A stretch of 63,693 nt of DNA, taken from Candidatus Omnitrophota bacterium. Its GTDB lineage: Bacteria; Omnitrophota; Gorgyraeia; Aquiviventales; Aquiviventaceae. The stretch covers positions 1 through 63,693 of the forward strand of contig JACQRE010000158.1 in NCBI GenBank assembly GCA_016206585.1, in the 5' to 3' direction. The translations under genes and the position numbers were made by a program. This document shows positions 2,234-45,712 of the stretch, piece by piece. The stretch's first letter is position 1, and each line of letters opens with the position of its first letter. Under the pieces are notes generated by a model. The model searched no databases, had not been told where the DNA came from, and worked only from the letters and a program-made list of their open reading frames with translations.

Positions 2234-3519
2234 CCAAGAAGATCGCCGCCCGGCGCGCCCGCATCGGGGTGATCGGGCTCGGCTACGTGGGGCTGCCGCT
2301 GGCGGTGGAGTTCGCGAAGGAGGGGTTTTCCGTCACCGGGATCGACCTGGATCCCGCCCGGGTGCGCGGCGTCAACGCCGCGCGCTCCTACATCCTCGAC
2401 GTGCCGAGTGAGGACCTCCGCCGGCTGCGCGCCGCCAGACGGCTGCGGGCCACCGCCTCGTTCAACGTGCTCGGCGCGCAGGATGCCGTCATCATCTGCG
2501 TGCCGACCCCCTTGCGCAAGACGCGCGAGCCGGACATGTCGTACATCCTCTCCGCCACCAAGGAGATCGCGCGGCACATCCGAAAGGGGCAGCTCATCGT
2601 CCTGGAGAGCACGACCTATCCGGGCACGACCGATGAGGTGATCCTGCCGGCCCTGGAGGCGCGCGGGCTCACGGTGGGCCGGGACTTCTGCCTCGCCTTC
2701 TCGCCGGAGCGCATCGACCCGGGCAACGCCACCTACATGACCCGCACCATCCCCAAAGTCATCGGCGGCATCACGCCGCAGTGCACGAAGCTGGCGACGG
2801 TGCTGTACGGCTGCGCCATCCACCGGACCGTGCCCGTGTCCTCCTCGAAGGTCGCGGAGATGGTGAAGCTGCTGGAGAACACCTTCCGCGCGGTCAACAT
2901 TGGCTTGGTGAATGAGATCGCGCTGATCTGCGACCGGCTGGGCATTGACGTCTGGGAAGTCATCGACGCGGCGAAGACGAAGCCCTTCGGCTTCATGCCG
3001 TTCTACCCGGGACCCGGCATCGGCGGCCACTGCATCCCGTCGGATCCGATGTATCTGGCCTGGAAGGTGCGCGTGCACGGCTTCGAGGCCCGCTTCATCG
3101 AGCTGGCCACGCAGATCAACGGGGCGATGCCCGAGCACGTGGTGGAGAAGATCGGCGGCGTGCTCAATGCCCGCCGCAAGGCGCTGAAAGGCGCGCGCGT
3201 CCTCCTGCTGGGGCTCGCCTACAAGAAGGACGTCGGCGATCTGCGCGACTCGCCGGCGTTCGACGTCGCGCGCCTCCTGGAGCAGCGGGGGGCTGTGGTG
3301 GACTACCACGACCCGTTCGTGCCCTCGACCGAGCTCAACGGCCGCCGGCGCTCCTCGTCGCCGCTGACGCCCGCCACGTTGCGGCGCTCCGACTGCGCCG
3401 TGGTCCTGACGAACCACTCGAAGGTGGATTACACCCTGGTGCTGCGCTGGGCCCCGGCCGTTGTGGATACGCGGAACCAATACCAGGGGACCAGATCAAA
3501 GAAAATCGTGAAGCTATGA
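2182..3519 (+). CDS. nucleotide-sugar 6-dehydrogenase (UDP-GlcNAc/ManNAc dehydrogenase family, TviB/WbpO/WecC-like)
   Basis: RIGVIGLGYVGLPLAVEF, GGHCIPSDP (catalytic Cys), LGLAYKKDVGDLRDSP. The start is uncertain: ATG 2182 overlaps rfbD by 52 nt. Confidence 0.88.
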   Translation: MGRRAARLSAPTGLARLAKKIAARRARIGVIGLGYVGLPLAVEFAKEGFSVTGIDLDPARVRGVNAARSYILDVPSEDLRRLRAARRLRATASFNVLGAQDAVIICVPTPLRKTREPDMSYILSATKEIARHIRKGQLIVLESTTYPGTTDEVILPALEARGLTVGRDFCLAFSPERIDPGNATYMTRTIPKVIGGITPQCTKLATVLYGCAIHRTVPVSSSKVAEMVKLLENTFRAVNIGLVNEIALICDRLGIDVWEVIDAAKTKPFGFMPFYPGPGIGGHCIPSDPMYLAWKVRVHGFEARFIELATQINGAMPEHVVEKIGGVLNARRKALKGARVLLLGLAYKKDVGDLRDSPAFDVARLLEQRGAVVDYHDPFVPSTELNGRRRSSSPLTPATLRRSDCAVVLTNHSKVDYTLVLRWAPAVVDTRNQYQGTRSKKIVKL

Positions 3520-3520
3520 G

Positions 3521-3575
3521 AGCGCGGAGTGCGGAATTCGGAGTTCGGAGTGGAAGCGTCATTCCGAACTGCGTC
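3521..3575. repeat. heptamer-repeat hairpin (CGGAGTn family)
   Basis: GCGGAGT GCGGAAT TCGGAGT TCGGAGT at 3524-3551, followed by the complementary ATTCCGAACTGCG at 3561-3573. Confidence 0.6.
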
Positions 3576-3595
3576 TTCATGAGAGGTTGTCTGTG

Positions 3596-4540
3596 ATGGC
3601 GAAATACTTGGTGACGGGGGGCGCGGGGTTCATCGGGTCGCACATCGTGGACCGGCTCCTCGCGCTGGGACATCAGGTCCGCGTGATGGACGACCTCTCG
3701 TCGGGCAACCTGGAGAACCTCGCCGGGGTGCGCGCCACGATCGAGCTCGTCCAGGCGGACATCCGCGACCGGCAGGCGATGGCGAAGGCCTGCGCCGGGG
3801 TGGAGCGCATCATCCACGCGGCGGCCTGGCGCAGCGTGCCGAAGTCGATGGCCGATCCGTACGGCTACACCGATGTGAACGTCCTGGCCACGGCCAGCCT
3901 GCTGGAGCAGGCGGTCAACGCCAAGGCGAAGCGGGTCGTCTGCGTCTCGTCCAGCTCGGTCTACGGCGAGACCGACCGAGTGCCGCTGCGCGAGGACCAA
4001 CCGACGCTGCCCATCTCCCCCTACGCCGCCTCCAAGCTGATCGACGAGATCCTCTGCGGCCTCTTCTCGCGCAGCTTCGGCCTCGAGACGGTGTCGGTGC
4101 GCTACTTCAACGTGTTCGGGCCGCGCCAGAGCCTGGAGAACGACTACGCGGTCGTGATCCCCAAGTTCATCTCGTGCCTCCTGCGCAAGGAGCCGCCGCC
4201 GGTCTACGGCGACGGCAAGCAGTCGCGCGACTTCACCTACGTGGAGAACGTGGTGGAGGGCACCATCGCCGCCTCGCAAGCGCCCGGCGTCAACGGCGAG
4301 GTGTTCAACATCGCCCTCGGCGAGGAGCACACGGTGCTCGACCTCCTCAACGAGCTCAACGCGATCATGGGCTTGTCCGTTCCGCCCGCCTTCAAGCCGC
4401 CGCGGCCCGGCGACGTGCGCCGGACGCTGGCCGATCCGTCCAAGGCGATGCGGCGGCTCGGCTGGAAGGGGACGGTTCCGTTCGCCGAAGGGCTGCGCCG
4501 CACCGTCGAGTGGTTCTGCGCGCATCCGCCTGGGTCATGA
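3596..4540 (+). CDS. SDR-family NAD-dependent sugar epimerase (WbpP/TviC-like)
   Basis: [43 protein letters not shown] lies 9 nt upstream of the ATG. Confidence 0.88.
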   Translation: MAKYLVTGGAGFIGSHIVDRLLALGHQVRVMDDLSSGNLENLAGVRATIELVQADIRDRQAMAKACAGVERIIHAAAWRSVPKSMADPYGYTDVNVLATASLLEQAVNAKAKRVVCVSSSSVYGETDRVPLREDQPTLPISPYAASKLIDEILCGLFSRSFGLETVSVRYFNVFGPRQSLENDYAVVIPKFISCLLRKEPPPVYGDGKQSRDFTYVENVVEGTIAASQAPGVNGEVFNIALGEEHTVLDLLNELNAIMGLSVPPAFKPPRPGDVRRTLADPSKAMRRLGWKGTVPFAEGLRRTVEWFCAHPPGS

Positions 4541-4567
4541 CCACGCGTTGCTTCACGCTGCGGGCTC

Positions 4568-4616
4568 CAGGCTACAAGCTGCAGCTTGCGGCTTGTAGCT
4601 TGCGGCTTGCAGCCTG
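4568..4616. repeat. heptamer-repeat hairpin (GCTTGCG family)
   Basis: GCTTGCG GCTTGTA GCTTGCG GCTTGCA at 4584-4611. Segment 4568-4583 pairs with 4601-4616 (14 Watson-Crick pairs plus 1 GU out of 16). Confidence 0.65.
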
Positions 4617-4621
4617 ATCGC

Positions 4622-5737
4622 ATGCAGCACGCCCATATCCCGCTCATCGATCTTCAGGCCCAGTATCGCTCGATCCAGCGCGAGGTTGACGCCGCGATCC
4701 GGCGCGTGGTCGCGCGCGGCCAGTTCGTCTTGGGGCCGGAGGGCGACGCGCTCGAGCGGGAGCTGGCGGCCTACTGCGGGACGCGCCATGCGGTCGCACT
4801 GGCGTCGGGGACCGACGCGCTGGAGCTCTCGCTGCGAGCCCTCGGCATCGGCCCGGGAGATGAGGTGGTCACGACCGTCTTCAGCTTCTTCGCCACCGCC
4901 GAGGCGATCATCGCCGCCGGTGCCACCCCGGTCTTCGCCGACATTGAGCCGCAGAGCTACACGCTCGATCCGGAGGCCGCCGCGCGCGCCGTGACCCGAC
5001 GCACCAAGGCGATCATCCCGGTCCATCTCTACGGCCACCCCTGCGACATGGGGCGGATCGCGGCCCTCGCGCGCCACCGGCGGCTGCAGGTGATCGAGGA
5101 CTGCGCGCAGGCGATCGGTGCCACGTGGCGCGGGCGGCGCGTCGGCGGATTCGGCGCGGCCGGCTGCCTGAGCTTCTATCCGAGCAAGAACCTCGGCGGC
5201 TACGGCGACGGCGGCATGGTGGTGACCAACGACGCGCGGCTGGCCAGGGCCCTGCGGCTGCTGCGCAACCACGGCGGCCGCCAACGCTACCAGCACCTCG
5301 TCCTGGGGAAGAACAGCCGGCTCGATGAGCTGCAGGCGGCCATCCTGCGCGTCAAGCTGCGCTACCTGGACCGGTGGAACGCCGCGCGCCGCCGGCATGC
5401 GCAACGCTACGCCGCGGCGTTGACCCGGCGCGGCCTCCGCCGCGCGGGGTTGCCGAAGGAACAGCCCGGCTGCCGGCACGTCTACCACCTCTATACGATC
5501 CGCTCCTCGGCACGCGCACGCCTCATCCGCGCGCTTGGCGGGCAGGGCATTGCGACGCAGGTGGCGTATCCCTCCACGCTGGCCGCGCAGCCGGCCCTCA
5601 GGCCGCTGCGGCTGCGGGCCGGACGATTTCCCGTGGCTGAGCGGGCTGCGCGCGAGGTGCTGGCTCTGCCGATGTATCCGGAGCTGACCGGCCGCGCCAT
5701 CGATCGCATCGCGCGGGTAGTAGCACAATCCGCTTGA
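4622..5737 (+). CDS. DegT/DnrJ/EryC1/StrS-family sugar aminotransferase
   Basis: IPLIDLQAQYRSIQREVDAAI, GTDALELSL, SFYPSKNLGGYGDGG. Confidence 0.92.
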   Translation: MQHAHIPLIDLQAQYRSIQREVDAAIRRVVARGQFVLGPEGDALERELAAYCGTRHAVALASGTDALELSLRALGIGPGDEVVTTVFSFFATAEAIIAAGATPVFADIEPQSYTLDPEAAARAVTRRTKAIIPVHLYGHPCDMGRIAALARHRRLQVIEDCAQAIGATWRGRRVGGFGAAGCLSFYPSKNLGGYGDGGMVVTNDARLARALRLLRNHGGRQRYQHLVLGKNSRLDELQAAILRVKLRYLDRWNAARRRHAQRYAAALTRRGLRRAGLPKEQPGCRHVYHLYTIRSSARARLIRALGGQGIATQVAYPSTLAAQPALRPLRLRAGRFPVAERAAREVLALPMYPELTGRAIDRIARVVAQSA

Positions 5738-7212: not shown

Positions 7213-7621
7213 TCGACCTCCGCGTCCCTGGACCGCGATCGGGCTCGGCCTCGTGTTCGGCCTCTATGCCGTGCTCCTCGTCGCCGCGGTGCGCACGGGA
7301 GCACACCAGGCGTTCACCGGATGGACGGCGAAGCTGCTCACACTCGGCGGCATCGCCCTCGGGCTGCTGCCGTGGGGGGCGTGGCTACGGCCCCGGATCG
7401 TGTGGGGCCTGGGGCTTCTGGGGTGCTGGGCGCTGGTGGCGTGCTACCTCGTCCTGCTGGCACCCATCGCGCTGGTGGTCCGTCTCATCGGCGATCCGCT
7501 CAGCCGCCGGCGGCCCGCCCCCCCACCAACCAGGTTGGTGGGGGGGCCCGCCGGCTCCTCGCACTGGCTGGCGCGGCCCCCGCTGCCCAATACGCTTGAC
7601 GCTGCCCGTGTTGAGTACTGA
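7205..7621 (+). CDS. small polytopic membrane protein, SxtJ-like
   Basis: Three or four hydrophobic spans, then [13 protein letters not shown]. It lies immediately upstream of a carbamoyltransferase, as SxtJ-type genes do. Confidence 0.6.
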
Positions 7622-7752
7622 ATCACCAATGACCAAATTCCAAACACCACATAATCACCAAACATCAATGCACCAATCACCAAACCGTTTGGTGATTCGG
7701 TCATTGGTCCATTGGTCATTATGTGGTGATTGGAATGTGGTGTTTGGTTATT
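7621..7752. repeat. long imperfect hairpin, CACCAAn/TTGGTGA family, copy A1
   Basis: ~65-nt arms around centre CAAAC-C-GTTTG (7681-7691). AT-richer than the flanks. Starts at the last base of the SxtJ-like stop codon. Confidence 0.8.
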
Positions 7753-7768
7753 GCGAGCGTGCGGTGTG

Positions 7769-11978: not shown

Positions 11979-11980
11979 CC

Positions 11981-12062
11981 ACAGCCAGCAACAAGCAACA
12001 AGCGACACGCAGCACGTGAAGAATATTCTTTCCGTGTTGCATGTCGCATGTTGCATGTCGCG
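11981..12062. repeat. heptamer hairpin, GCGACAA/GCAACAA family, copy B1
   Basis: Left arm is ...AGCAACAAGCAACAAGCGACACGCAGCACG. The core is the palindrome AAGAATATTCTT (12019-12030). Right arm is CGTGTTGCATGTCGCATGTTGCATGTCGCG. Confidence 0.75.
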
Positions 12063-12079
12063 AATCGGATTGTTGTCCC

Positions 12080-13240: not shown

Positions 13241-13375
13241 GAATCACCAATGACCAAGCACCAAACACCACATAATCACCAATGGACCAATGACCGAATG
13301 ACCAAACGGTTTGGTGATTGGTGCATTGGTGTTTGGTGTTTATGTGGTGATTGGAATTTGGTGTTTGGTGATTCG
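13241..13375. repeat. CACCAAn-family hairpin, copy A2, inverted relative to A1
   Basis: It fills the whole stop-to-start gap. The centre is CAAAC-G-GTTTG, the reverse complement of the A1 centre. The reverse complement of its right arm matches the A1 left arm at 60 of 65 positions. Confidence 0.8.
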
Positions 13376-14220: not shown

Positions 14221-15233
14221 ACGGCGTCGTCGCCGCCCAGCCCGGCTGGTCCGGTCGCCGCGTGCTCGTCACCGGTGCCACGGGGTTCGTCGGGACGTGG
14301 CTGGCCAAAGCGCTGCTCGACTCCGGCGCCCAGGTCGTCTGCCTGGTGCGCGACGCCGATCCCAACGCGCTCTTCATCCGGGGCGGGATCGACGAGCAGG
14401 TGACGATCGTCGCCGGCTCGCTGCAGGACTACTTCCTCCTCGAGCGGGCCCTGAAGCAGTACGAGATCGACACGGTGTTCCACCTGGCGGCCGAGGCGAT
14501 CGTGCCGAACGCCATCGTCTCGCCGCTGTCGACCTTCGAGTCGAACATCCGCGGCACCTGGCAGCTGCTCGAAGCGGTGCGCCGGACGCCGACGGTGACA
14601 CGGACGGTCGTCGCCTCCAGCGACAAGGCGTACGGCGCGCAGCCCAGGCTGCCGTACACCGAGGAGGATCCGCTGCGCGGCCGCCACCCGTACGACGCGT
14701 CGAAGTCGTGCGCCGACCTGCTCGCGCAGGCCTACGCGTCCACCTACGAGCTGGCGGTGGGGATCACCCGGTGCGCCAACATCTACGGGCCCGGCGACAT
14801 CAACTGGAGCCGGCTCATCCCGGGCACGATCCGCTCGATCCTCCGGCGGGAGCGGCCCGTCATCCGCAGCGACGGCAAGTCCACGCGCGACTACCTCTAC
14901 ATCGCCGACGCGGTGGAGGCGTACCTGACGCTGGGGACCCGCGTGGAGGAGCCCGGCATCCGGGGCGAGCCGTTCAACTTCGGGCCGGGGCGGGCGGTCT
15001 CGGTGCTCGACCTGGCCGCGAGGCTGCTGGCCCTCGGGCCGTATCCCGAGTTGACGCTCGACATCGTCAACACGGCGAAGGCCGAGATCCGCGACCAGAG
15101 CCTCTCGAGCGAGAAGGCGAAACGGCTGCTCGGCTGGAGGCCCAGCGTCGGGCTGGATGAGGGGTTGGAGCGCGCGATGAAGTGGTACCAAGCGTTCCTG
15201 GAAGAAGACCTGGAAATTACCAGTAGAACATAG
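14205..15233 (+). CDS. SDR-family NDP-hexose 4,6-dehydratase (CDP-glucose dehydratase-like)
   Basis: RVLVTGATGFVGTWLAKAL, SSDKAYG, HPYDASKSCADL. It sits downstream of rfbF with a 16-nt overlap. Confidence 0.75.
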   Translation: MENLVDGVVAAQPGWSGRRVLVTGATGFVGTWLAKALLDSGAQVVCLVRDADPNALFIRGGIDEQVTIVAGSLQDYFLLERALKQYEIDTVFHLAAEAIVPNAIVSPLSTFESNIRGTWQLLEAVRRTPTVTRTVVASSDKAYGAQPRLPYTEEDPLRGRHPYDASKSCADLLAQAYASTYELAVGITRCANIYGPGDINWSRLIPGTIRSILRRERPVIRSDGKSTRDYLYIADAVEAYLTLGTRVEEPGIRGEPFNFGPGRAVSVLDLAARLLALGPYPELTLDIVNTAKAEIRDQSLSSEKAKRLLGWRPSVGLDEGLERAMKWYQAFLEEDLEITSRT

Positions 15234-15238
15234 GCCCT

Positions 15239-15333
15239 CAGCGACATGCGACATGCGACAAGCAACACTTCAACCGCCGATCCTTTAAGAGCTTGGTGGT
15301 TCCGTGTTGCATGTTGCTTGTCGCTTGTCGCTG
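15239..15333. repeat. GCGACAn-family hairpin, copy B2
   Basis: 30-nt arms at 15239-15268 and 15304-15333 are complementary at 26 of 30 positions. The loop is 35 nt. Confidence 0.8.
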
Positions 15334-15343
15334 ATACTCCTGT

Positions 15344-16366
15344 ATGACGCGCACCCCACTCGTGACCGTCTGCGTTCCCACCTATAACCGCGCCGGGTAC
15401 CTGCGCCAGTGCCTGGATTCGATTCTCGCGCAGACGGTGGACGCGTTCGAGCTGCTGGTGCTCGACAACGCCTCGACCGATGACACCCCTGAGGTGGTGC
15501 GGCATCTCGCGGATCCGCGCGTGCGCTGCGTCCGGCACCCGGAGAACCTGGGACAGATCCCCAACGTCAACCGGGGGCTGGAGCTGGCGAGGGGCGAATT
15601 CGTGTGCGTCTGCCACGACGACGACGTGTGGGCGCCGCGGTTCCTGGAGCGGCAGCTCGAGGTGATGCGCCGCCACCCGTCGGTCGCACTCTCGCACACC
15701 GCCGTCTGGCTCTGCACGGAGGAGGGGGTCGCGCGCGGCGTCCATCGGGTGAGTGCCCGCGACTACCTGCTCAACGGACGCGAGGCCTTTCTGCGCTACC
15801 TGGCGTTCGGGCACGACGTGGTGTTTTCCACGACGATGGTCCGCCGCGCCTGCTACCAGCAGGCCGGGCCGTTCGATGCCCGCTACCTGTGCGCCGACTT
15901 CGACATGTGGCTGCGCCTCTCGCTGCAGGGCGATGTCGCCTATGTGGCCAAGCCGCTGGCCGGATACCGGGTCCACGGGGCGAGTGCGTCGAGCGGCATG
16001 ACCGCCGTGCGGTGGTTCCAGGAGTATTTCGAGATCTTCGACCGGGCGGTCGCCCTGGGCGCTCCGCAGCTGCCGGAGTTGCCAGCACTGGCCGGTCGGC
16101 TGCGCGCCCGCGCGAAGCGCTTCCAGGCCCGGCGCGCCCGCATCGAGGCGGCCGCGTGCCTCGCGGCGGGCCACGACGCCGCCGCGCAGGAGTATCTCGA
16201 CGCGGCGGCGCGCCTGGATCGCTCACTGCCCAGTTCGCTCGCCACCGGGGCGTTGCGCCTGTGCCGCAATGCCGCTGGCCGCAGCGTGCTGAGTGGGATC
16301 AAGGCGGTACGACGTCGAGTACGCTCAGCGACAAGCGACAAGCGACAAGCAACAGTTACGCAATAG
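15344..16366 (+). CDS. GT2-family glycosyltransferase
   Basis: VTVCVPTYNRAGYLRQCLDSILAQT, LVLDNASTDDT, CHDDDVW. Confidence 0.9.
   Translation: MTRTPLVTVCVPTYNRAGYLRQCLDSILAQTVDAFELLVLDNASTDDTPEVVRHLADPRVRCVRHPENLGQIPNVNRGLELARGEFVCVCHDDDVWAPRFLERQLEVMRRHPSVALSHTAVWLCTEEGVARGVHRVSARDYLLNGREAFLRYLAFGHDVVFSTTMVRRACYQQAGPFDARYLCADFDMWLRLSLQGDVAYVAKPLAGYRVHGASASSGMTAVRWFQEYFEIFDRAVALGAPQLPELPALAGRLRARAKRFQARRARIEAAACLAAGHDAAAQEYLDAAARLDRSLPSSLATGALRLCRNAAGRSVLSGIKAVRRRVRSATSDKRQATVTQ
16326..16355. repeat. solo arm of the GCGACAA family (no partner arm)
   Basis: GCGACAA x3 at 16328-16348, then GCAACAG. It encodes the last residues (SDKRQATVTQ) of the GT2. Confidence 0.65.
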
Positions 16367-16383: not shown

Positions 16384-17358
16384 ATGAAAACGGCATTACT
16401 GGAATGGCTGGCGTGTCCCGCGTGCCGGGGCACGCTGCGCCTGGCACAGCCGGTGCACCAGGGCGAGGAGATCGTCTCCGGCGCGCTGGGCTGCGAGAGC
16501 TGCTCGCGCGCCTACCCGATCGTGCGGGGGATCCCCCGCTTCGTCGCCGACGACAGCTACGCCGGCAACTTCAGCTTCGAGTGGAACCGGTTCCAGACCA
16601 CCCAGCTCGACAGCCGGCAGCAGCGCGGCGAGTCGGAGCGGCGCTTCCGGCAGAGCCTCGACATCCCGCTGGAGCAGCTGAAGGGGCAGCTCGTCCTGGA
16701 CGCCGGCTGCGGGATGGGCCGCTTCGCCGAGATCGCCCTCCATCACGGGGCCACGGTCGTGGCGATGGACCTCAGCTTCGCGGTGGACGCGGCGGCGAAG
16801 AACCTCTCGCCGCAGCCCGACGCTCACGTGGTCCAGGCGAACCTCTTCGCCCTGCCGTTCCGCCCTGAGACGTTCGACCTGATCTACAGCCTCGGCGTGC
16901 TGCACCACACGCCCAACCCCCGGAAGGCGTTCGAGGGGCTGGTGGAGCTGCTCAAGACCGGCGGGAAGATCAGCGTGACGCTCTACAGCGGCTATAACAC
17001 CGTCTACGTGCGCTCCACGAGCTTCTGGCGGTTCGCGCTGAAGCGGCTCCCCGGCCGCTGGCTCTACCGCCTGTCGCACCTCGCCATCCCGTACTACCAC
17101 CTCTGCCGGATCCCGCTGCTCGGGTTGGGGTTTCAGGCGCTGTTTCCCATCAGCATGCACCCGGATCCCGAATGGCGGGTCCTCGACACCTTCGACTGCT
17201 ACAGCCCCACGTACCAGTCCTACCACACCCACCACGAAGTGTTCCGGTGGTTCAAGGAGGCGAACTTGACCGGCGTCGAAGTGCTGGAACCAGGCATCTC
17301 GTTAATTGGTGGAAAGCGCACAGTCAGCGACAAGCGACAAGCAACAAGCAGCACTTGA
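16384..17358 (+). CDS. class I SAM methyltransferase with an N-terminal Trm112-like zinc ribbon
   Basis: LEWLACPACRG...CESCSRAYPIVRGIPRF, then VLDAGCGMGRF and LLKTGGKI. Confidence 0.85.
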   Translation: MKTALLEWLACPACRGTLRLAQPVHQGEEIVSGALGCESCSRAYPIVRGIPRFVADDSYAGNFSFEWNRFQTTQLDSRQQRGESERRFRQSLDIPLEQLKGQLVLDAGCGMGRFAEIALHHGATVVAMDLSFAVDAAAKNLSPQPDAHVVQANLFALPFRPETFDLIYSLGVLHHTPNPRKAFEGLVELLKTGGKISVTLYSGYNTVYVRSTSFWRFALKRLPGRWLYRLSHLAIPYYHLCRIPLLGLGFQALFPISMHPDPEWRVLDTFDCYSPTYQSYHTHHEVFRWFKEANLTGVEVLEPGISLIGGKRTVSDKRQATSST

Positions 17359-17400
17359 AGAATATTCTCACGTGTTGCCTGTCGCTTGTTGCCTGTTGCT
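17321..17400. repeat. GCGACAA-family hairpin, copy B3
   Basis: Left arm CAGTCAGCGACAAGCGACAAGCAACAAGCAGCAC, core TGAAGAATATTCT, right arm CGTGTTGCCTGTCGCTTGTTGCCTGTTGCT. Confidence 0.75.
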
Positions 17401-21779: not shown

Positions 21780-22975
21780 TCACCGTCTTGCATCTCTCGC
21801 ACTGCCTCAACCGCTACGACTATATCGACGCGGTGATCCGGCACGCGGACCCCGCGCAGTTCCGCATGCTGGCCGCGACGCTGACGGATGACGGCTCGGT
21901 GCGTCCCGGGGCGGCGCCGTATCCGGTGACCGTGTTGGGCGTGCGCGCCCGGACCCAGTGGCCGGCTGCGGCGGCGGCGCTGCGGCGCCTGTGCCGGAGC
22001 GAGCGCGTGGACGTCGTCCATACGCACAATCTCGATTCGACGGCGATCGGCGCCTTCGCCGCGCTCGGCATCCGCCGGGTGCGGCTCGTCATCGGGCGGC
22101 ACTACGCGGATGCGCTCTATCAGCTGCGCCCCGCCTGGAAGTGCCGCGCCCTCCTGGCGCTGGAAGGCTGGTGCAACCGCCGCGCGGCGCGCCTCATCGC
22201 GCCCTCCTCCATGGTGCGCGCGATCCTCGTGGAGCGTCAGCGCGTGCCGGCGCGGCGTGTCGCGCAGATTCCGTACGGGTTCGACTTCGCCAAGCATCAG
22301 GCGTCCGTGGATGCGCCGGCACGGCTGCGGCGCGAGCTGGGGCTGGAGGGGGCGGCCGTGCTGGGCAGCTTCTCGCGGTTGAACGCCGATAAAGGGCACG
22401 CCGATCTGTTGCGCGCCTTCGCCCGGCTGCAGCCGGGGCGGCCCACGCTGCGCCTGCTCCTCGTCGGGGAGGGGAACGTCAGGCCGCGCCTTGAGGCGCT
22501 GGCCCGGGAGCTCGGCGTGCAGGAGCGGGTGCGGTTCGCCGGGTGGCGCGCGGATGTCATCGACCTCATGGCGATGGCGGATGTGGTCGCGCACCCCTCG
22601 CTCCACGAGGCGTTCAGCCAGGTGATGGTGGAGGCGCTGGCCATGGGCAAGCCGCTCGTGATCACCGACGTGAGCGGTGTCGCCGATGTCGTGCGGGATG
22701 GCTGGAACGGGCTCATCGTCCCGAAGGCGGATCCGGCGGCGCTGGCGGCGGCGGTCACGCGGCTGCTCGACCATCCCGAGGAGGCCGCCGCAATGGGCGC
22801 GCGCGGGCGCGCGCGGGTGCGCCGCGAGCTGGACATCCACGTCATCATCACACAGTACGAAGCGGTCTATCGGAACGTGATGGGGCAGGAACAATCACCA
22901 AACACCAAATCTCAATCACCAAATAATCACCAAGATCCAATCACCAATGACCAAACAATTGAGGTCATCGCGTAG
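21776..22975 (+). CDS. GT4-family glycosyltransferase
   Basis: VAHPSLHEAFSQVMVEALAMGKPLVITDVSG. The last ~30 aa are a translation of the left arm of repeat A3. Confidence 0.88.
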   Translation: MITVLHLSHCLNRYDYIDAVIRHADPAQFRMLAATLTDDGSVRPGAAPYPVTVLGVRARTQWPAAAAALRRLCRSERVDVVHTHNLDSTAIGAFAALGIRRVRLVIGRHYADALYQLRPAWKCRALLALEGWCNRRAARLIAPSSMVRAILVERQRVPARRVAQIPYGFDFAKHQASVDAPARLRRELGLEGAAVLGSFSRLNADKGHADLLRAFARLQPGRPTLRLLLVGEGNVRPRLEALARELGVQERVRFAGWRADVIDLMAMADVVAHPSLHEAFSQVMVEALAMGKPLVITDVSGVADVVRDGWNGLIVPKADPAALAAAVTRLLDHPEEAAAMGARGRARVRRELDIHVIITQYEAVYRNVMGQEQSPNTKSQSPNNHQDPITNDQTIEVIA

Positions 22976-23041
22976 TTGTTTGGTGATTGGTGTTTGGTTA
23001 TTGGAGCTTATTTGGTGATTGGAATTTGGTGATTGGTGATT
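22893..23041. repeat. CACCAAn-family hairpin, copy A3
   Basis: ~66-nt arms at 22893-22958 and 22976-23041, with a 17-nt loop. The stop codon of the upstream GT4 lies in the loop. Confidence 0.8.
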
Positions 23042-23063
23042 TCATGAGCAGCGAGATGTGTTG

Positions 23064-41183: not shown

Positions 41184-42308
41184 ATGCGCATCCTCGCCGT
41201 TGCCACCAATCCCGAGACCGGTGCCAGTACCCGCTTCCGCGTCCTCCAATGGGCGCCGGTGCTGGAGCGCGAGGGGTTTTCGCTGGCGGTCGAGCCCTTC
41301 TACTCCCCCCGGGCCTCGGCGGTGCTGTATCGGCGCGGCCGGCCGCTGGGCAAGCTCTCGCATTTCATCCGCGGTGCCATCCGGCGCCGCGCGGTGCTCG
41401 CCCGCGCGTCCACCGAGGCCGAGATCCTCCTCATCCACCGGGAGGCGTTTCCGCTGGGTCTGCGCTGGTCGCTCGGCGCGGTCAAGCGGTTCGGCGGGCC
41501 CCTCCTCTATGATTACGACGACGCGATGTTCGTGCCGCAGCGGCAAGGGCGGGGAGTGCTCGCGCGGCTGGAGCACCTCGACACCCCGAAGGAGCTCATG
41601 GCGCTGAGCGACGTCGTGCTGGCCGGCAACGAGTTCCTCGCCGCGTACGCGCGCCGGTACGCGCGCCGCGTCGTCCTGCTGCCCACCTGCATCGACACGG
41701 CGCGGTTCAGGCCCGGACCCGCATCCGAGCCAGACGGCCGGCCCCTCACCATCGGCTGGATCGGCAGCCACTCGACGACCAAATACCTGGAGAGCGTCAA
41801 GCCGGTGCTGGAGCGGCTCGGTGCCGGCCTCCCGTTTCGCGTCTCCATCGTGGGCAGCGCAGTACCGCTGAGGCTGCGCGGCGTCGAGGTCAGCCAGACC
41901 GCCTGGGCGCTCGAGCGCGAGGCGGAGGATTTTGCGCGCTGCGACATCGGCGTCTATCCGTTGTGGGACGACCCGTGGAGCCAGGGCAAGTGCGGGTTCA
42001 AGGCGATCCAGTTCATGGCCTGCGGCGTGCCCGTCGTCGCCTCCGCGGTCGGAGCGAACCGCGAGATTATCCAGGACGGCGTCAACGGGTTCCTCGCCGC
42101 CACACGCCAGGAGTGGCTCGAGAAGCTGGGCCGGCTGCTCACCGATGCCGCCCTGCGCGCGCGGCTGGGCGAGGCGGGGCGGCGGACCATCGAGGAGCGC
42201 TATTCTCTGGCGGCACAGGCGCCACGGCTCGTTGGAGCGCTGCGCGAGGCGCTCACGAACCACAGAAGCACAGAGACAGTGCCACAGAAGCACAGAGAAG
42301 AGCAATGA
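41184..42308 (+). CDS. GT4-family glycosyltransferase
   Basis: IGWIGSHSTTKYL, KCGFKAIQFMACGVPVVASAVGANREII. The C-terminal tail (NHRSTETVPQKHREEQ) is a translation of repeat C1. Confidence 0.85.
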   Translation: MRILAVATNPETGASTRFRVLQWAPVLEREGFSLAVEPFYSPRASAVLYRRGRPLGKLSHFIRGAIRRRAVLARASTEAEILLIHREAFPLGLRWSLGAVKRFGGPLLYDYDDAMFVPQRQGRGVLARLEHLDTPKELMALSDVVLAGNEFLAAYARRYARRVVLLPTCIDTARFRPGPASEPDGRPLTIGWIGSHSTTKYLESVKPVLERLGAGLPFRVSIVGSAVPLRLRGVEVSQTAWALEREAEDFARCDIGVYPLWDDPWSQGKCGFKAIQFMACGVPVVASAVGANREIIQDGVNGFLAATRQEWLEKLGRLLTDAALRARLGEAGRRTIEERYSLAAQAPRLVGALREALTNHRSTETVPQKHREEQ

Positions 42309-42384
42309 CCAATTACCAAGGCTCCTTTTGGTGTTTGGTAATTGGCTTTCTCTGTGTTTCTGTGGGATTCTGTGGTTCTGTGGT
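42259..42384. repeat. mosaic hairpin C1 (CACAGAA outer arms, CCAAT/TTGGT inner arms)
   Basis: ACCACAGAAGCACAGAGACAGTGCCACAGAAGCACAGAG...CCAATTACCAA / TTGGTGTTTGGTAATTGG...CTCTGTGTTTCTGTGGGATTCTGTGGTTCTGTGGT. Confidence 0.8.
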
Positions 42385-42401
42385 GTCGGGAGCCGTGTGA
42401 C

Positions 42402-44321: not shown

Positions 44322-45595
44322 TGAAACGCGTGAAGGGGTGGATGGCCGTGCAGCTCCTCGTGACCGGCACAGGCGTGGGGCTGGGGCTCTGGCTCGTGCA
44401 CGTCGGGACCCTTCGAGGGGCCGGAGGCAGCGACCGGCTGCGCGGCACGCCGGAGAGCGAGACGATCCTGGGTCTTGGCGGCGACGACGAGATTGACGGA
44501 CTCGCCGGCCGGGATTTGCTCTACGGCCACGACGGCGATGACGTCCTGAGGGGCGGCGACGGCGATGATCTCCTGGTGGGCCTCCAGGGGAGCGACCGGC
44601 TCGAAGGGGGTGCTGGGGCCGATCTGCTGAATGGGGGCGGCGGGGATGATACGCTCGATGGCGGCGCGGGCGATGACGTCCTGAGCGGGCTGGACGGCCA
44701 CGACACGCTCATCGGCGGAGGCGGCAACGACCGGCTGGAGGCGGATGCCGGCAACGACCGCTTGGAGGGCGGGCCGGGCGATGACGCGCTCTTGGCGGGA
44801 CCTGGAGACGATGTGCTCATCGGGTCGGCAGGCGACGACACGCTGAGTGCCGGCGAGGGCGATGACCGCCTCGACGGAGGGGCCGGCGATGATCAGCTGT
44901 TCGGGGACGCCGGCAACGACCGTCTCGATGGCGCAGACGGGCACGATCTCCTTGAGGGCGGCGAGGGCGCGGATCAGCTGGCGGGGGGTCCGGGGAACGA
45001 CCGCTTGGACGGCGGTTCCGGCGATGATGAGTTGGACGGCGGCGCGGGCCACGATCTCCTGGACGGCGGCGCGGGCCGCGACCGGTTGATTGGCGGATCC
45101 GGCGATGACATCGTGCGGGGGCTGGGTGGCGACGATGTCCTCGAAGGGGGCGACGGCAACGACCAGCTGCTTGATGAGGTGGGTGGCAACGATACATTGG
45201 ACGGCGGGACGGGCGATGACCGGCTCTCCGGCTACCTGGGCGATGACCATCTGCTCGGCGGGGAAGGGGATGATCGCTTGGACGGCGACAAGGGCGACGA
45301 CCGCCTCGACGGCGGGGCGGGCGATGACCAGCTCCAGTTGGGCGATGGCGATGACCATGGTTCTGACGGAACGGGCTCGGATCAGGTCGAGGGCGGGCCG
45401 GGCAGCGATACGATTGAGCTCGTGCAGGATGGCACGGCTGACCGCGTGTCCGCAGGGTCCGGCGATGACGCGATGTGGGTTCATTTCGACAGCGGGCCCG
45501 ATGAGATTGTCTGTGGGGAGGGCACGGATACGGTGGATCTCCATGGCAACACGCAGGCGCGCGTGGCGGCGGATTGCGAGCAGGTGATCCCCTGA
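44318..45595 (+). CDS. RTX-type calcium-binding repeat protein with an N-terminal hydrophobic anchor or signal
   Basis: Roughly three dozen GGxGxDxLx nonapeptides. The N-terminus is MMKRVKGWMAVQLLVTGTGVGLGLWLV. Confidence 0.88.
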   Translation: MMKRVKGWMAVQLLVTGTGVGLGLWLVHVGTLRGAGGSDRLRGTPESETILGLGGDDEIDGLAGRDLLYGHDGDDVLRGGDGDDLLVGLQGSDRLEGGAGADLLNGGGGDDTLDGGAGDDVLSGLDGHDTLIGGGGNDRLEADAGNDRLEGGPGDDALLAGPGDDVLIGSAGDDTLSAGEGDDRLDGGAGDDQLFGDAGNDRLDGADGHDLLEGGEGADQLAGGPGNDRLDGGSGDDELDGGAGHDLLDGGAGRDRLIGGSGDDIVRGLGGDDVLEGGDGNDQLLDEVGGNDTLDGGTGDDRLSGYLGDDHLLGGEGDDRLDGDKGDDRLDGGAGDDQLQLGDGDDHGSDGTGSDQVEGGPGSDTIELVQDGTADRVSAGSGDDAMWVHFDSGPDEIVCGEGTDTVDLHGNTQARVAADCEQVIP

Positions 45596-45690
45596 CACCA
45601 CAGATGACACAGAAGCCACACAGAACCACAGAGGGAGGCGGCTTATTCACACGCTTCTGTGCTTCTGTGGATTTCTGTGATTTTGTGGTG
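45596..45690. repeat. CACAGAA-family hairpin, copy C2
   Basis: CACCACAGATGACACAGAAGCCACACAGAACCACAGAG ... CTTCTGTGCTTCTGTGGATTTCTGTGATTTTGTGGTG. It starts directly after the RTX stop codon. Confidence 0.75.
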
Positions 45691-45712
45691 CGGGTGGTTC
45701 AGGGGATTCCGC

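Follow-up and report, generated by a model that had tools for sequence, protein, structure and literature searches.

Introduction

Tandem arrays of heptanucleotides have been an unexplained oddity of bacterial genomes since 1990, when Mazel et al. reportedly described the short tandemly repeated repetitive (STRR) sequences of cyanobacteria, with the units CCCCAGT, TTGGTCA and CAACAGT; they came up again between 2007 and 2015, in surveys of long simple sequence repeats (SSRs), in Xanthomonas and in Beggiatoa. Equally unexplained is the open reading frame (ORF) of rRNA intervening sequences (IVSs), which encodes S23p (PF05635), the "23S rRNA intervening-sequence protein", an Avd-like four-helix bundle. 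Here we describe hairpins with arms of tandem heptamers, found in a 63,693-nucleotide stretch of bacterial DNA (the window) and throughout the genome assembly to which it belongs, and we report that in related genomes arms of this kind bracket an S23p gene. This locus family ties the two puzzles together in one lineage, site by site.

The closest described systems differ in what they combine. The palindromic elements of Rickettsia, of which Ogata et al. are said to have given an account in 2000, are selfish sequences that insert into conserved protein genes without breaking the frame, so that the protein gains a surface loop. The IVS of Coxiella burnetii has a 28-bp terminal stem, in which RNase III cleaves, and an S23p ORF in the loop; its stem region contains tandem GACAGAT heptamers whose number varies between strains (PMC4990558). 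In Xanthomonas, each genome holds 70-75 convergent inverted pairs of GGGAATC repeats (Rehm et al. 2015, PMC4692102), in arrays of about four units that are transcribed and whose type is preserved between species (PMC4692102). The TAACTGA arrays of Beggiatoaceae and Microcystis comprise 2-6 units and end a few nucleotides before start codons (PMC4679880).

Neither heptamer arrays (as in STRR sequences, Xanthomonas and Beggiatoaceae) nor IVSs that bear S23p are new in themselves. In the literature that we searched, no paper joins the two or describes such repeats in Omnitrophota, and a link between STRR sequences and S23p is likewise not reported in the searchable literature. New here are a series of states at one and the same gene junction (S23p cassette, gene-less hairpin, empty site), long-lived translated hairpin inserts in essential enzymes (DXS, Asd, FtsK) and the apparent absence of RNase III from the bacterial family that bears the hairpins. 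There is also a practical side. The repeats break assemblies, fuse ORF calls and add low-complexity peptides, which matters to those who annotate metagenome-assembled genomes (MAGs) of Omnitrophota.

Results

Period-7 arrays in the window and the assembly

The window is contig C129 of an assembly, here called G000, of 1.385 Mb in 178 contigs, with 67% GC and a rated completeness of 74%. Direct reading of its sequence gives GCGGAGT GCGGAAT TCGGAGT TCGGAGT at 3524-3551, GCTTGCG GCTTGTA GCTTGCG GCTTGCA at 4584-4611 and three copies of GCGACAA at 16328-16348, as noted in an initial annotation made from the letters alone. Two hairpin families named there were also confirmed: the A family, with arms (7621-7752, 13241-13374 and 22890-23041) built of CACCAAn/TTGGTSA units, and the C family, with arms (42257-42384 and 45598-45688) built of CACAGAA units. 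Tandem Repeats Finder (TRF) returned period-7 rows at 11 loci of the window (Table 1), and 7 is the commonest TRF period in the whole assembly (389 rows).

A simple autocorrelation detector (at least four copies, at least 85% self-match), run over the whole 1.385-Mb assembly, found 190 arrays of period 7. Periods 5, 6, 8 and 9 gave 2-17 arrays and periods 10-12 gave 0; in three dinucleotide shuffles of the assembly there were 0 arrays of period 7. With 190 arrays against 0 in shuffled sequence, and few at other periods, the period of 7 is overwhelmingly supported, and the strict 7-nt periodicity, which is indeed common to all hairpin families, lies far above chance. Arrays of at least three copies number 285, merging into 198 loci, at a density of about 20 arrays per 100 kb. 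This falls short of their real number, since such repeats break short-read assemblies; 22 array loci lie at contig ends.

Most arrays are one half of an inverted pair. A complementary partner was found within 160 nt for 182 of the 285 arrays of at least three copies, at a matching threshold passed by 26 reversed-sequence controls. The earlier statement that every junction pairs a run of heptamers with a run of complementary heptamers thus holds for the majority, but not for the array at 16325-16355 or for some 57 arrays across the assembly, which are solo arms without a partner.

The host is not a cyanobacterium. Its rpoB is at most 59% identical to that of any species representative, and the best named matches, at 55%, are MAGs of Omnitrophota and Verrucomicrobiota. 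We consider the genome to be probably that of a member of the Omnitrophota.

Anatomy of the hairpins

Counting single hairpins of at least 20 bp, there are 79 loci in G000, with medians of 93 nt, 35 bp, a loop of 5 nt and -49 kcal/mol. Between their two inverted arms, which consist of 3-9 heptamers in tandem (or, in some relatives, of octamers), lies a short loop. A typical stem has five or six pairs and then one mismatch, a pattern that repeats along its length, and interruptions of the stem in the 79 hairpins peak at a spacing of 7 nt (80 cases, as against 49 for the next most frequent spacing).

The unit families number at least 15. GGAGTKC (about 35 hairpins) and GCGACAA (about 25) come first; ACGTGTA, GTTCGAT, CACCAAT, GAGACMW, GCTGCAG, GAGTGAC and AGCTGAT are among the others. 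Copies of one family have more in common than their units. The GGAGTKC copies share non-periodic ends (ACACGCAGTKC...GMACTGCGTGT), several GCGACAA copies share the loop core GAAGAATATTCT, and in the A family every arm has an irregular ATAA break in common. One 31-mer recurs without change at three loci of the assembly (window 16325-16355, C51:24345 and C127:951).

In several relatives the unit is 8 nt long (for example GCCAGTTn or AACGCGCA), as in L095 (G004), L102 (G032), L118 (G010) and L119 (G009). Because such hairpins stand at sites where other genomes use 7-nt units, the period is tunable by lineage and not fixed at 7. When phased from a terminal CAG, many units of the 5' arm end in AG (TTCGGAG, CGACAAG, ACCAGAG, GCTGCAG, CGATCAG, TGACGAG and GCTCAAG), and a [C/G]AG every 7 nt may be a feature that the unit families share.

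S23p cassettes with heptamer arms

The initial annotation had missed a link of such arrays to S23p cassettes. A profile search found PF05635 in 24 of 35 genomes of the taxonomic family to which G000 belongs, with up to 11 matches per genome. At 23 of 27 such loci, arrays of period 7 or 8 with complementary units lie on both sides of the gene within 260 nt; among 97 control windows displaced by 0.8-1.1 kb at these loci, 1 has such a pair. The gene is co-directional with its neighbours in 14 of 22 cases. The units of the cassette arms match those of gene-less hairpins in the same genome, for example CAGGTGTA in G009, GCTCAAGG in G036 and G001, and GAGTTGA in G005. About 50 places in G043, a congener of G036, match the arms of one G036 cassette; in a comparison of the two genomes for filled and empty sites, only arms were matched.

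The relation between cassette and gene-less hairpin can be followed at one junction. The epimerase-like gene of the window (Table 1) served as the anchor for comparing orthologous junctions. On its 3' side, G000 has a GCTTGCR hairpin, G010 and G009 have hairpins of 8-nt units, and G036 has a solo CCCGAAC array. In G015 the same place is taken by an intact S23p cassette between CACCAAN arms, which fits exactly between the epimerase stop and the aminotransferase ATG and has a PF05635 ORF of 111 residues (69 bits) with one arm on its left and one on its right. In at least 10 genera the spacer is missing or the genes overlap, and 5 genera carry elements of unrelated units. The window's three A-family hairpins can be aligned with the arms of the G015 cassette along some 55 nt, ATAA break included, with scores of 25-36 (shuffle maximum 19-22).

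G000 itself retains one PF05635 relic, at C51:2987-3326. It covers profile positions 1-51, the N-terminal half, before running into an unrelated tail, and it lies between inverted AGAAGGG/CCTTCTT arrays that fill the spacer from stop to start.

Beyond G000, the GCGACAA pattern was found in 8 of 18 other genera of the bacterial family. Each of the two other sampled families of the order gave a single weak match, one of which was also matched by a control pattern, and 0 of 10 other families of the class had the pattern. Generic period-7 arrays occur in most sampled genomes of the bacterial family and are patchy beyond it.

Hairpins translated in frame

The initial annotation had reasoned that a 7-nt period is out of phase with codons and fits a non-coding origin. 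This does not apply to a subset of hairpins, which lie in frame within genes for DXS, Asd, a radical-SAM protein, a GT4 glycosyltransferase and FtsK. Thirty-five loci fell inside gene calls, many of them through ORF fusion, and four cases in G000 were checked against Pfam and proved to be real inserts. The DXS hairpin separates the DXP_synthase_N domain (residues 8-282) from Transket_pyr (residue 343 onwards); that of Asd lies within aspartate-semialdehyde dehydrogenase, and that of the GT4 glycosyltransferase in an inter-domain linker. These three and the hairpin in the radical-SAM protein are all in frame and open.

For DXS and Asd, orthologues from 18-25 genera of the bacterial family were compared. 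About 11 genera have a tandem-repeat hairpin at the same DXS linker site, and the same Asd loop is occupied in about 10, always open and in frame. The units differ by genus (GCTCAAG, GGCTCAG, GTTCAAG, GGGTTCG, and 8-nt units in two genera). In seven genera the Asd segment is exactly 45 codons long, and a GAGTT/AACTC core is kept in the arms. The Asd arms pair in 62.6% of cells, whereas shuffles give 57.9% and sliding the partner gives 19-44%, and their covariation is modest (score 0.193 vs 0.143; reached by 7 of 500 shuffles).

We also compared the ftsK gene of G001 with its orthologue. Its variable loop contains an in-frame 72-nt GCTCAAGG hairpin (L161:14119-14185), inserted between ...GYNE.. 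and LPY(I/L)VIVIDE, whereas the congener G040 (L244) has 33 unrelated nucleotides between the same conserved flanks. Filled and empty states therefore occur even within one genus. Both genomes also have a solo array just upstream of a start codon, with different units. Together with the genus-wise differences in DXS and Asd, these sites indicate that positions persist while units turn over. Being in frame and free of stops, the inserts in DXS, Asd and FtsK are evidently translated and not removed. On another contig of G001 (L160) there are no arrays, and the indels relative to G040 are ordinary genes.

Placement relative to genes and strands

Genes were called with our own caller, which is based on the GC content of third codon positions; it is crude (89% coding), and its loci inside genes include ORF fusions across stop-free hairpins. 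Placement of the array loci is not random with respect to genes: their median coding overlap is 0, compared with 0.88 under random placement. By type of junction, 127 array loci are co-directional, 8 divergent and 6 convergent; G000 as a whole has 1002, 84 and 80 such junctions. An enrichment at co-directional junctions, for which the initial annotation had proposed a test, was not borne out: co-directional junctions carry arrays in 12.7% of cases and the remaining junctions in 8.5% (Fisher p=0.16, not significant). Given this result, and a genome that is 86% co-directional, the elements are better described as intergenic in general.

Distances to the neighbouring stop and start were taken in 60 co-directional hairpins. 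In 42 of them, no more than 15 nt separate the upstream stop from the stem's 5' base; in 52, the first in-frame start falls between -12 and +25 nt relative to the 3' base. The median distances of stop and start are -1.5 and +5.5 nt. A run of at least four T within 12 nt follows only 2 of the 60, which rules out intrinsic terminators. From these positions at the base of the stem and the rarity of T-runs, we conclude that the hairpins fill the spacer between stop and start and do not act as intrinsic terminators.

Sense and antisense folds are equally stable (sense better in 32 hairpins, antisense in 34; Wilcoxon p=0.64), and we reject selection on the strand at the RNA level for that reason. 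An apparent bias of G.U over A.C was discarded as an artefact of counting 1x1 loops only, and the orientation bias of T.C versus G.A per hairpin was not significant (18 vs 10, p=0.18). Copies 1 and 2 of the A family (7615-7758 and 13241-13374), whose orientation was read from their inner arm sequences and from the orientation of alignments, point in opposite directions although both lie between genes of the + strand. Equal fold energies and both orientations of the A copies give no sign of selection on the transcribed strand.

RNase III in the bacterial family

RNase III was sought with three models (TIGR02191, PF14622 and PF00636). Neither G000 nor 30 of the 31 genomes searched in its bacterial family yielded the domain. 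Ten of these genomes reach a completeness of 90% or more, and the single exception has RNase III fragments at contig ends. At the level of the class, rnc is present in 15 of 61 genomes and its presence is consistent by family. To our knowledge, loss of rnc across whole families is unusual for bacteria. Absence of RNase III is not sufficient for arrays to appear, as several relatives without rnc are free of arrays in 40-kb samples.

Elements of the window

The 11 elements of the window are listed in Table 1. None has an ORF in its loop, and Rfam gave 0 matches above the gathering score in the window. The first element is decayed. It retains a core stem of 12 bp (about 3542-3570) and takes up the space from a stop at 3517-3519 to a start at 3596, and the fold of 3515-3581 is weak (dG -26.8 kcal/mol, z -2.7) with the right arm cut down to that stem. 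The hairpin at 4549..4622 is bounded by the epimerase-like gene, whose stop is at 4538-4540, and by an aminotransferase-like gene, whose ATG is at 4623. In the loop of the C-family hairpin at 42252..42392, at about 42300-42345, an A-type (GACCAAT/TTGGT) hairpin is nested.

Table 1. Repeat elements of the window and the flanking anchor gene. TRF, interval of the period-7 row; dG in kcal/mol.
Feature	Position	TRF	Strand	Stem (bp)	dG	z	Remarks
Truncated GGAGTKC-family element	3524..3575	3525-3551					Four left heptamers, 3524-3551; right arm of only about 1.5 units (ATTCCGAACTGCG)
NAD-dependent sugar epimerase/dehydratase-like gene	3596..4540		+				GGAGFIGS motif
GCTGCAR/GCTTGCR-family hairpin	4549..4622	4580-4613		32	-50.8	-6.8	
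A-family (CACCAAn/TTGGTSA) hairpin, copy 1	7615..7758	7621-7747		58	-65.6	-7.5	
GCGACAA-family hairpin	11979..12068	11987-12061			-43		Loop core GAAGAATATTCT
A-family hairpin, copy 2	13241..13374	13245-13373			-74		
GCGACAW-family hairpin	15230..15343	15241-15332		45	-63.5	-10.5	Stop 15231-15233; ATG 15344
Solo GCGACAA arm	16325..16355	16327-16354	+				Without partner; upstream ORF reads through, encoding ...SATSDKRQAT
GCGACAA-family hairpin	17326..17400	17326-17400			-42		Loop GAAGAATATTCT; stop of upstream ORF within loop
A-family hairpin, copy 3	22886..23046	22892-23041		65	-83		Upstream ORF runs into left arm
C-family (CACAGAA) hairpin	42252..42392	42257-42384			-83		
C-family (CACAGAA/TTCTGTG) hairpin, copy 2	45591..45694	45598-45688			-52		

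Solo GCGACAA arms are read through by ORFs not only at 16325-16355 but also at C51:24345, C127:951 and C39:6266 of the assembly. The resulting SATSDKRQAT peptide recurs at the C-termini or fusion points of glycosyltransferase and lipid A-related genes.

The assembly has two Y1_Tnp (IS200/RAYT-like) genes, of about 225-245 aa, at C66:331-1068 and C120:1578-2249. Neither is flanked by heptamer arrays, and we therefore reject a link of the hairpins to repetitive extragenic palindromic (REP) sequences and their REP-associated tyrosine transposases (RAYTs). The C66 gene is flanked by GGTACC palindromes of its own (inverted AGAACCGGTACCATTTTTCT sequences), and GAACCGGTACC is present at 7 places in the genome; gene and palindromes may form a separate system of the REP/RAYT type.

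Discussion

On balance, we think that the hairpins are probably a selfish, mostly non-autonomous family of foldback DNA, the gene-less form of the S23p cassettes. The arms bracket an S23p gene at 23 of 27 PF05635 loci, their units are those of gene-less hairpins in the same genomes, and at the epimerase-aminotransferase junction cassette, hairpin and empty site replace one another between genera. The elements have several features of MITEs (miniature inverted-repeat transposable elements), namely terminal inverted repeats, many dispersed copies, and both filled and empty sites.

We suggest that the arms grow, shrink and are homogenised by slipped-strand mispairing in steps of 7 nt, which would account both for stem mismatches 7 nt apart and for the fast turnover of units at fixed sites. 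New copies would come from a copying step at the level of DNA. Loops are possibly preferred landing sites, since an A-type hairpin is nested in a C-type loop and the S23p gene likewise lies in loops. Copies would then survive where an insert that folds on itself does least harm. One such place could be the spacer from a stop to the start that follows, two sites that the stem would keep within a few nucleotides of each other; another could be a surface loop or a domain linker of a protein, where the insert would be read as an open frame.

Loss of RNase III may be what lets long stems persist in mRNAs. As 30 of the 31 genomes searched in the bacterial family gave no RNase III, excision in the manner of an IVS is unlikely, and the hairpins, unlike the IVSs of 23S rRNA, are probably not removed. 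With no RNase III gene found, the sole known route for processing such stems would be gone, which suggests why a lineage that appears to be without the enzyme could tolerate them.

Several observations weigh against a selfish origin from S23p cassettes. No target-site duplication or motif was seen in 27 GGAGTKC flanks or at the ftsK site of G001 and G040, flanks that are much diverged. The elements have no linked transposase, since neither Y1_Tnp gene of G000 is flanked by arrays, and no transposase-coding element with the same ends was seen as a MITE parent; S23p is the only gene seen between such arms. We know of no mobility or transposase activity of S23p. G000, which has the densest set of hairpins, has one truncated S23p only in its assembled 74%, and G016 (96% complete) and G018 (90% complete) have no PF05635 match despite their DXS and Asd hairpins, from which it follows that the S23p gene is not needed for hairpins to persist. 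Age, vertical inheritance and a modest covariation of the arms, as seen in the DXS and Asd hairpins, could also reflect selection for structure. Lastly, descent may have run in either direction: a cassette may have lost its gene, or the gene may have entered the loop of a hairpin.

In a rival reading, the hairpins would be functional intercistronic RNA stems that couple a stop to the next start for termination-reinitiation, or that protect or segment polycistronic mRNA, as do the stems of REP sequences and bacterial interspersed mosaic elements (BIMEs) or the processing sites of phage T7. Stop and start do lie at the base of very stable stems that fill the spacer (medians -1.5 and +5.5 nt), and the DXS and Asd positions are conserved in at least 10 genera with some covariation. 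However, sense and antisense folds show no asymmetry and both orientations occur; many genera have the same gene pair and no spacer; copies lie within ORFs, and at divergent and convergent junctions at similar rates; the sequences of the units are unconstrained; and the bacterial family appears to lack RNase III (30 of 31 genomes). We regard this function as rather unlikely to explain the family.

Alternatively, each hairpin could have arisen purely in place, by heptamer slippage and hairpin-templated repair without dispersal, similar units being due to mutation bias or gene conversion. In many prokaryotes heptanucleotide SSRs are the commonest class of long SSRs, a fact put down to polymerase slippage (summarised in PMC4679880), and both the turnover of units at fixed sites between congeners and the 7-nt spacing of stem mismatches would fit. 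An in-place origin is improbable in view of the non-periodic termini, loop cores and irregular breaks that copies share, the identical 31-mers at three loci, the nesting of one element within another and the bracketing of a single gene family in 23 of 27 cases. It is highly improbable that the arrays are binding sites on DNA or single strands for a protein with a 7-nt register (S23p or a cold-shock/OB-fold candidate) that serves nucleoid organisation or regulation: the period is strict whatever the unit, the Avd-like S23p is associated with arrays, and CspB binds as one protein per heptamer (cited in PMC4679880), but at least 15 unrelated units would require a reader that ignores sequence, and genomes without S23p retain their hairpins.

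There is also a wider, more doubtful possibility. Heptamer hairpins and S23p could constitute one widespread, undescribed class of bacterial elements, in which S23p acts on the arms (in copying, protection or homogenisation) and of which STRR sequences, the Xanthomonas repeats and rRNA IVSs would be manifestations; in an Omnitrophota family that has lost RNase III, the element would then have broken out of its niches in rRNA and between genes and spread to operon junctions and to the frames of essential genes.

Comparison with known systems

The likeness to STRR sequences proposed in the initial annotation is one of design. In both, several unrelated tandem heptamer units occur in many copies, mostly between genes. 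The units themselves are not those of STRR sequences: the dominant ones here are GGAGTKC, GCGACAA, ACGTGTA, GTTCGAT and CACCAAT, and TTGGTCA, which is indeed present in the A arms (TRF consensus at 7689-7720), is only a minor variant there. The phylum differs, as do the GC content (67%) and the predominance of inverted pairs.

Inverted heptamer arrays in a high-GC genome had seemed unexpected, but Xanthomonas provides a precedent (PMC4692102). There, too, heptamer arrays are found at high GC and close to stops and starts (PMC4692102). Xanthomonas has a single G-rich unit with G-quadruplex potential, whereas the present elements comprise at least 15 families without G-tracts, are in part translated in frame, and are far denser (about 20 arrays per 100 kb). 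The TAACTGA repeats of Beggiatoaceae and Microcystis are likewise abundant intergenic heptamer arrays adjoining starts (PMC4679880). In contrast to the present arrays, they have a single unit, are biased in orientation and are nearly all direct (1 inverted set in 170; PMC4679880).

REP sequences, BIMEs and REPINs resemble the present hairpins as abundant intergenic hairpins within operons, but the arms here are not REP-like. The Rickettsia elements are similar in being palindromic, inserted in frame and, on the reading that we favour here, selfish; they have neither arms of tandem heptamers nor an S23p gene.

Among the closest known systems are the S23p IVSs, as known from Coxiella burnetii (PMC4990558) and Leptospira. 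IVSs are regarded as selfish, and their ORF decays. Unlike them, the present copies lie between or within protein genes and not in a helix of 23S rRNA (no rRNA is assembled in G000), most are gene-less, having lost the gene or never had it, and their lineage is apparently without RNase III. What the two share is the plan of the element: inverted terminal arms, a long stem and, in the relatives of G000, an S23p gene in the loop.

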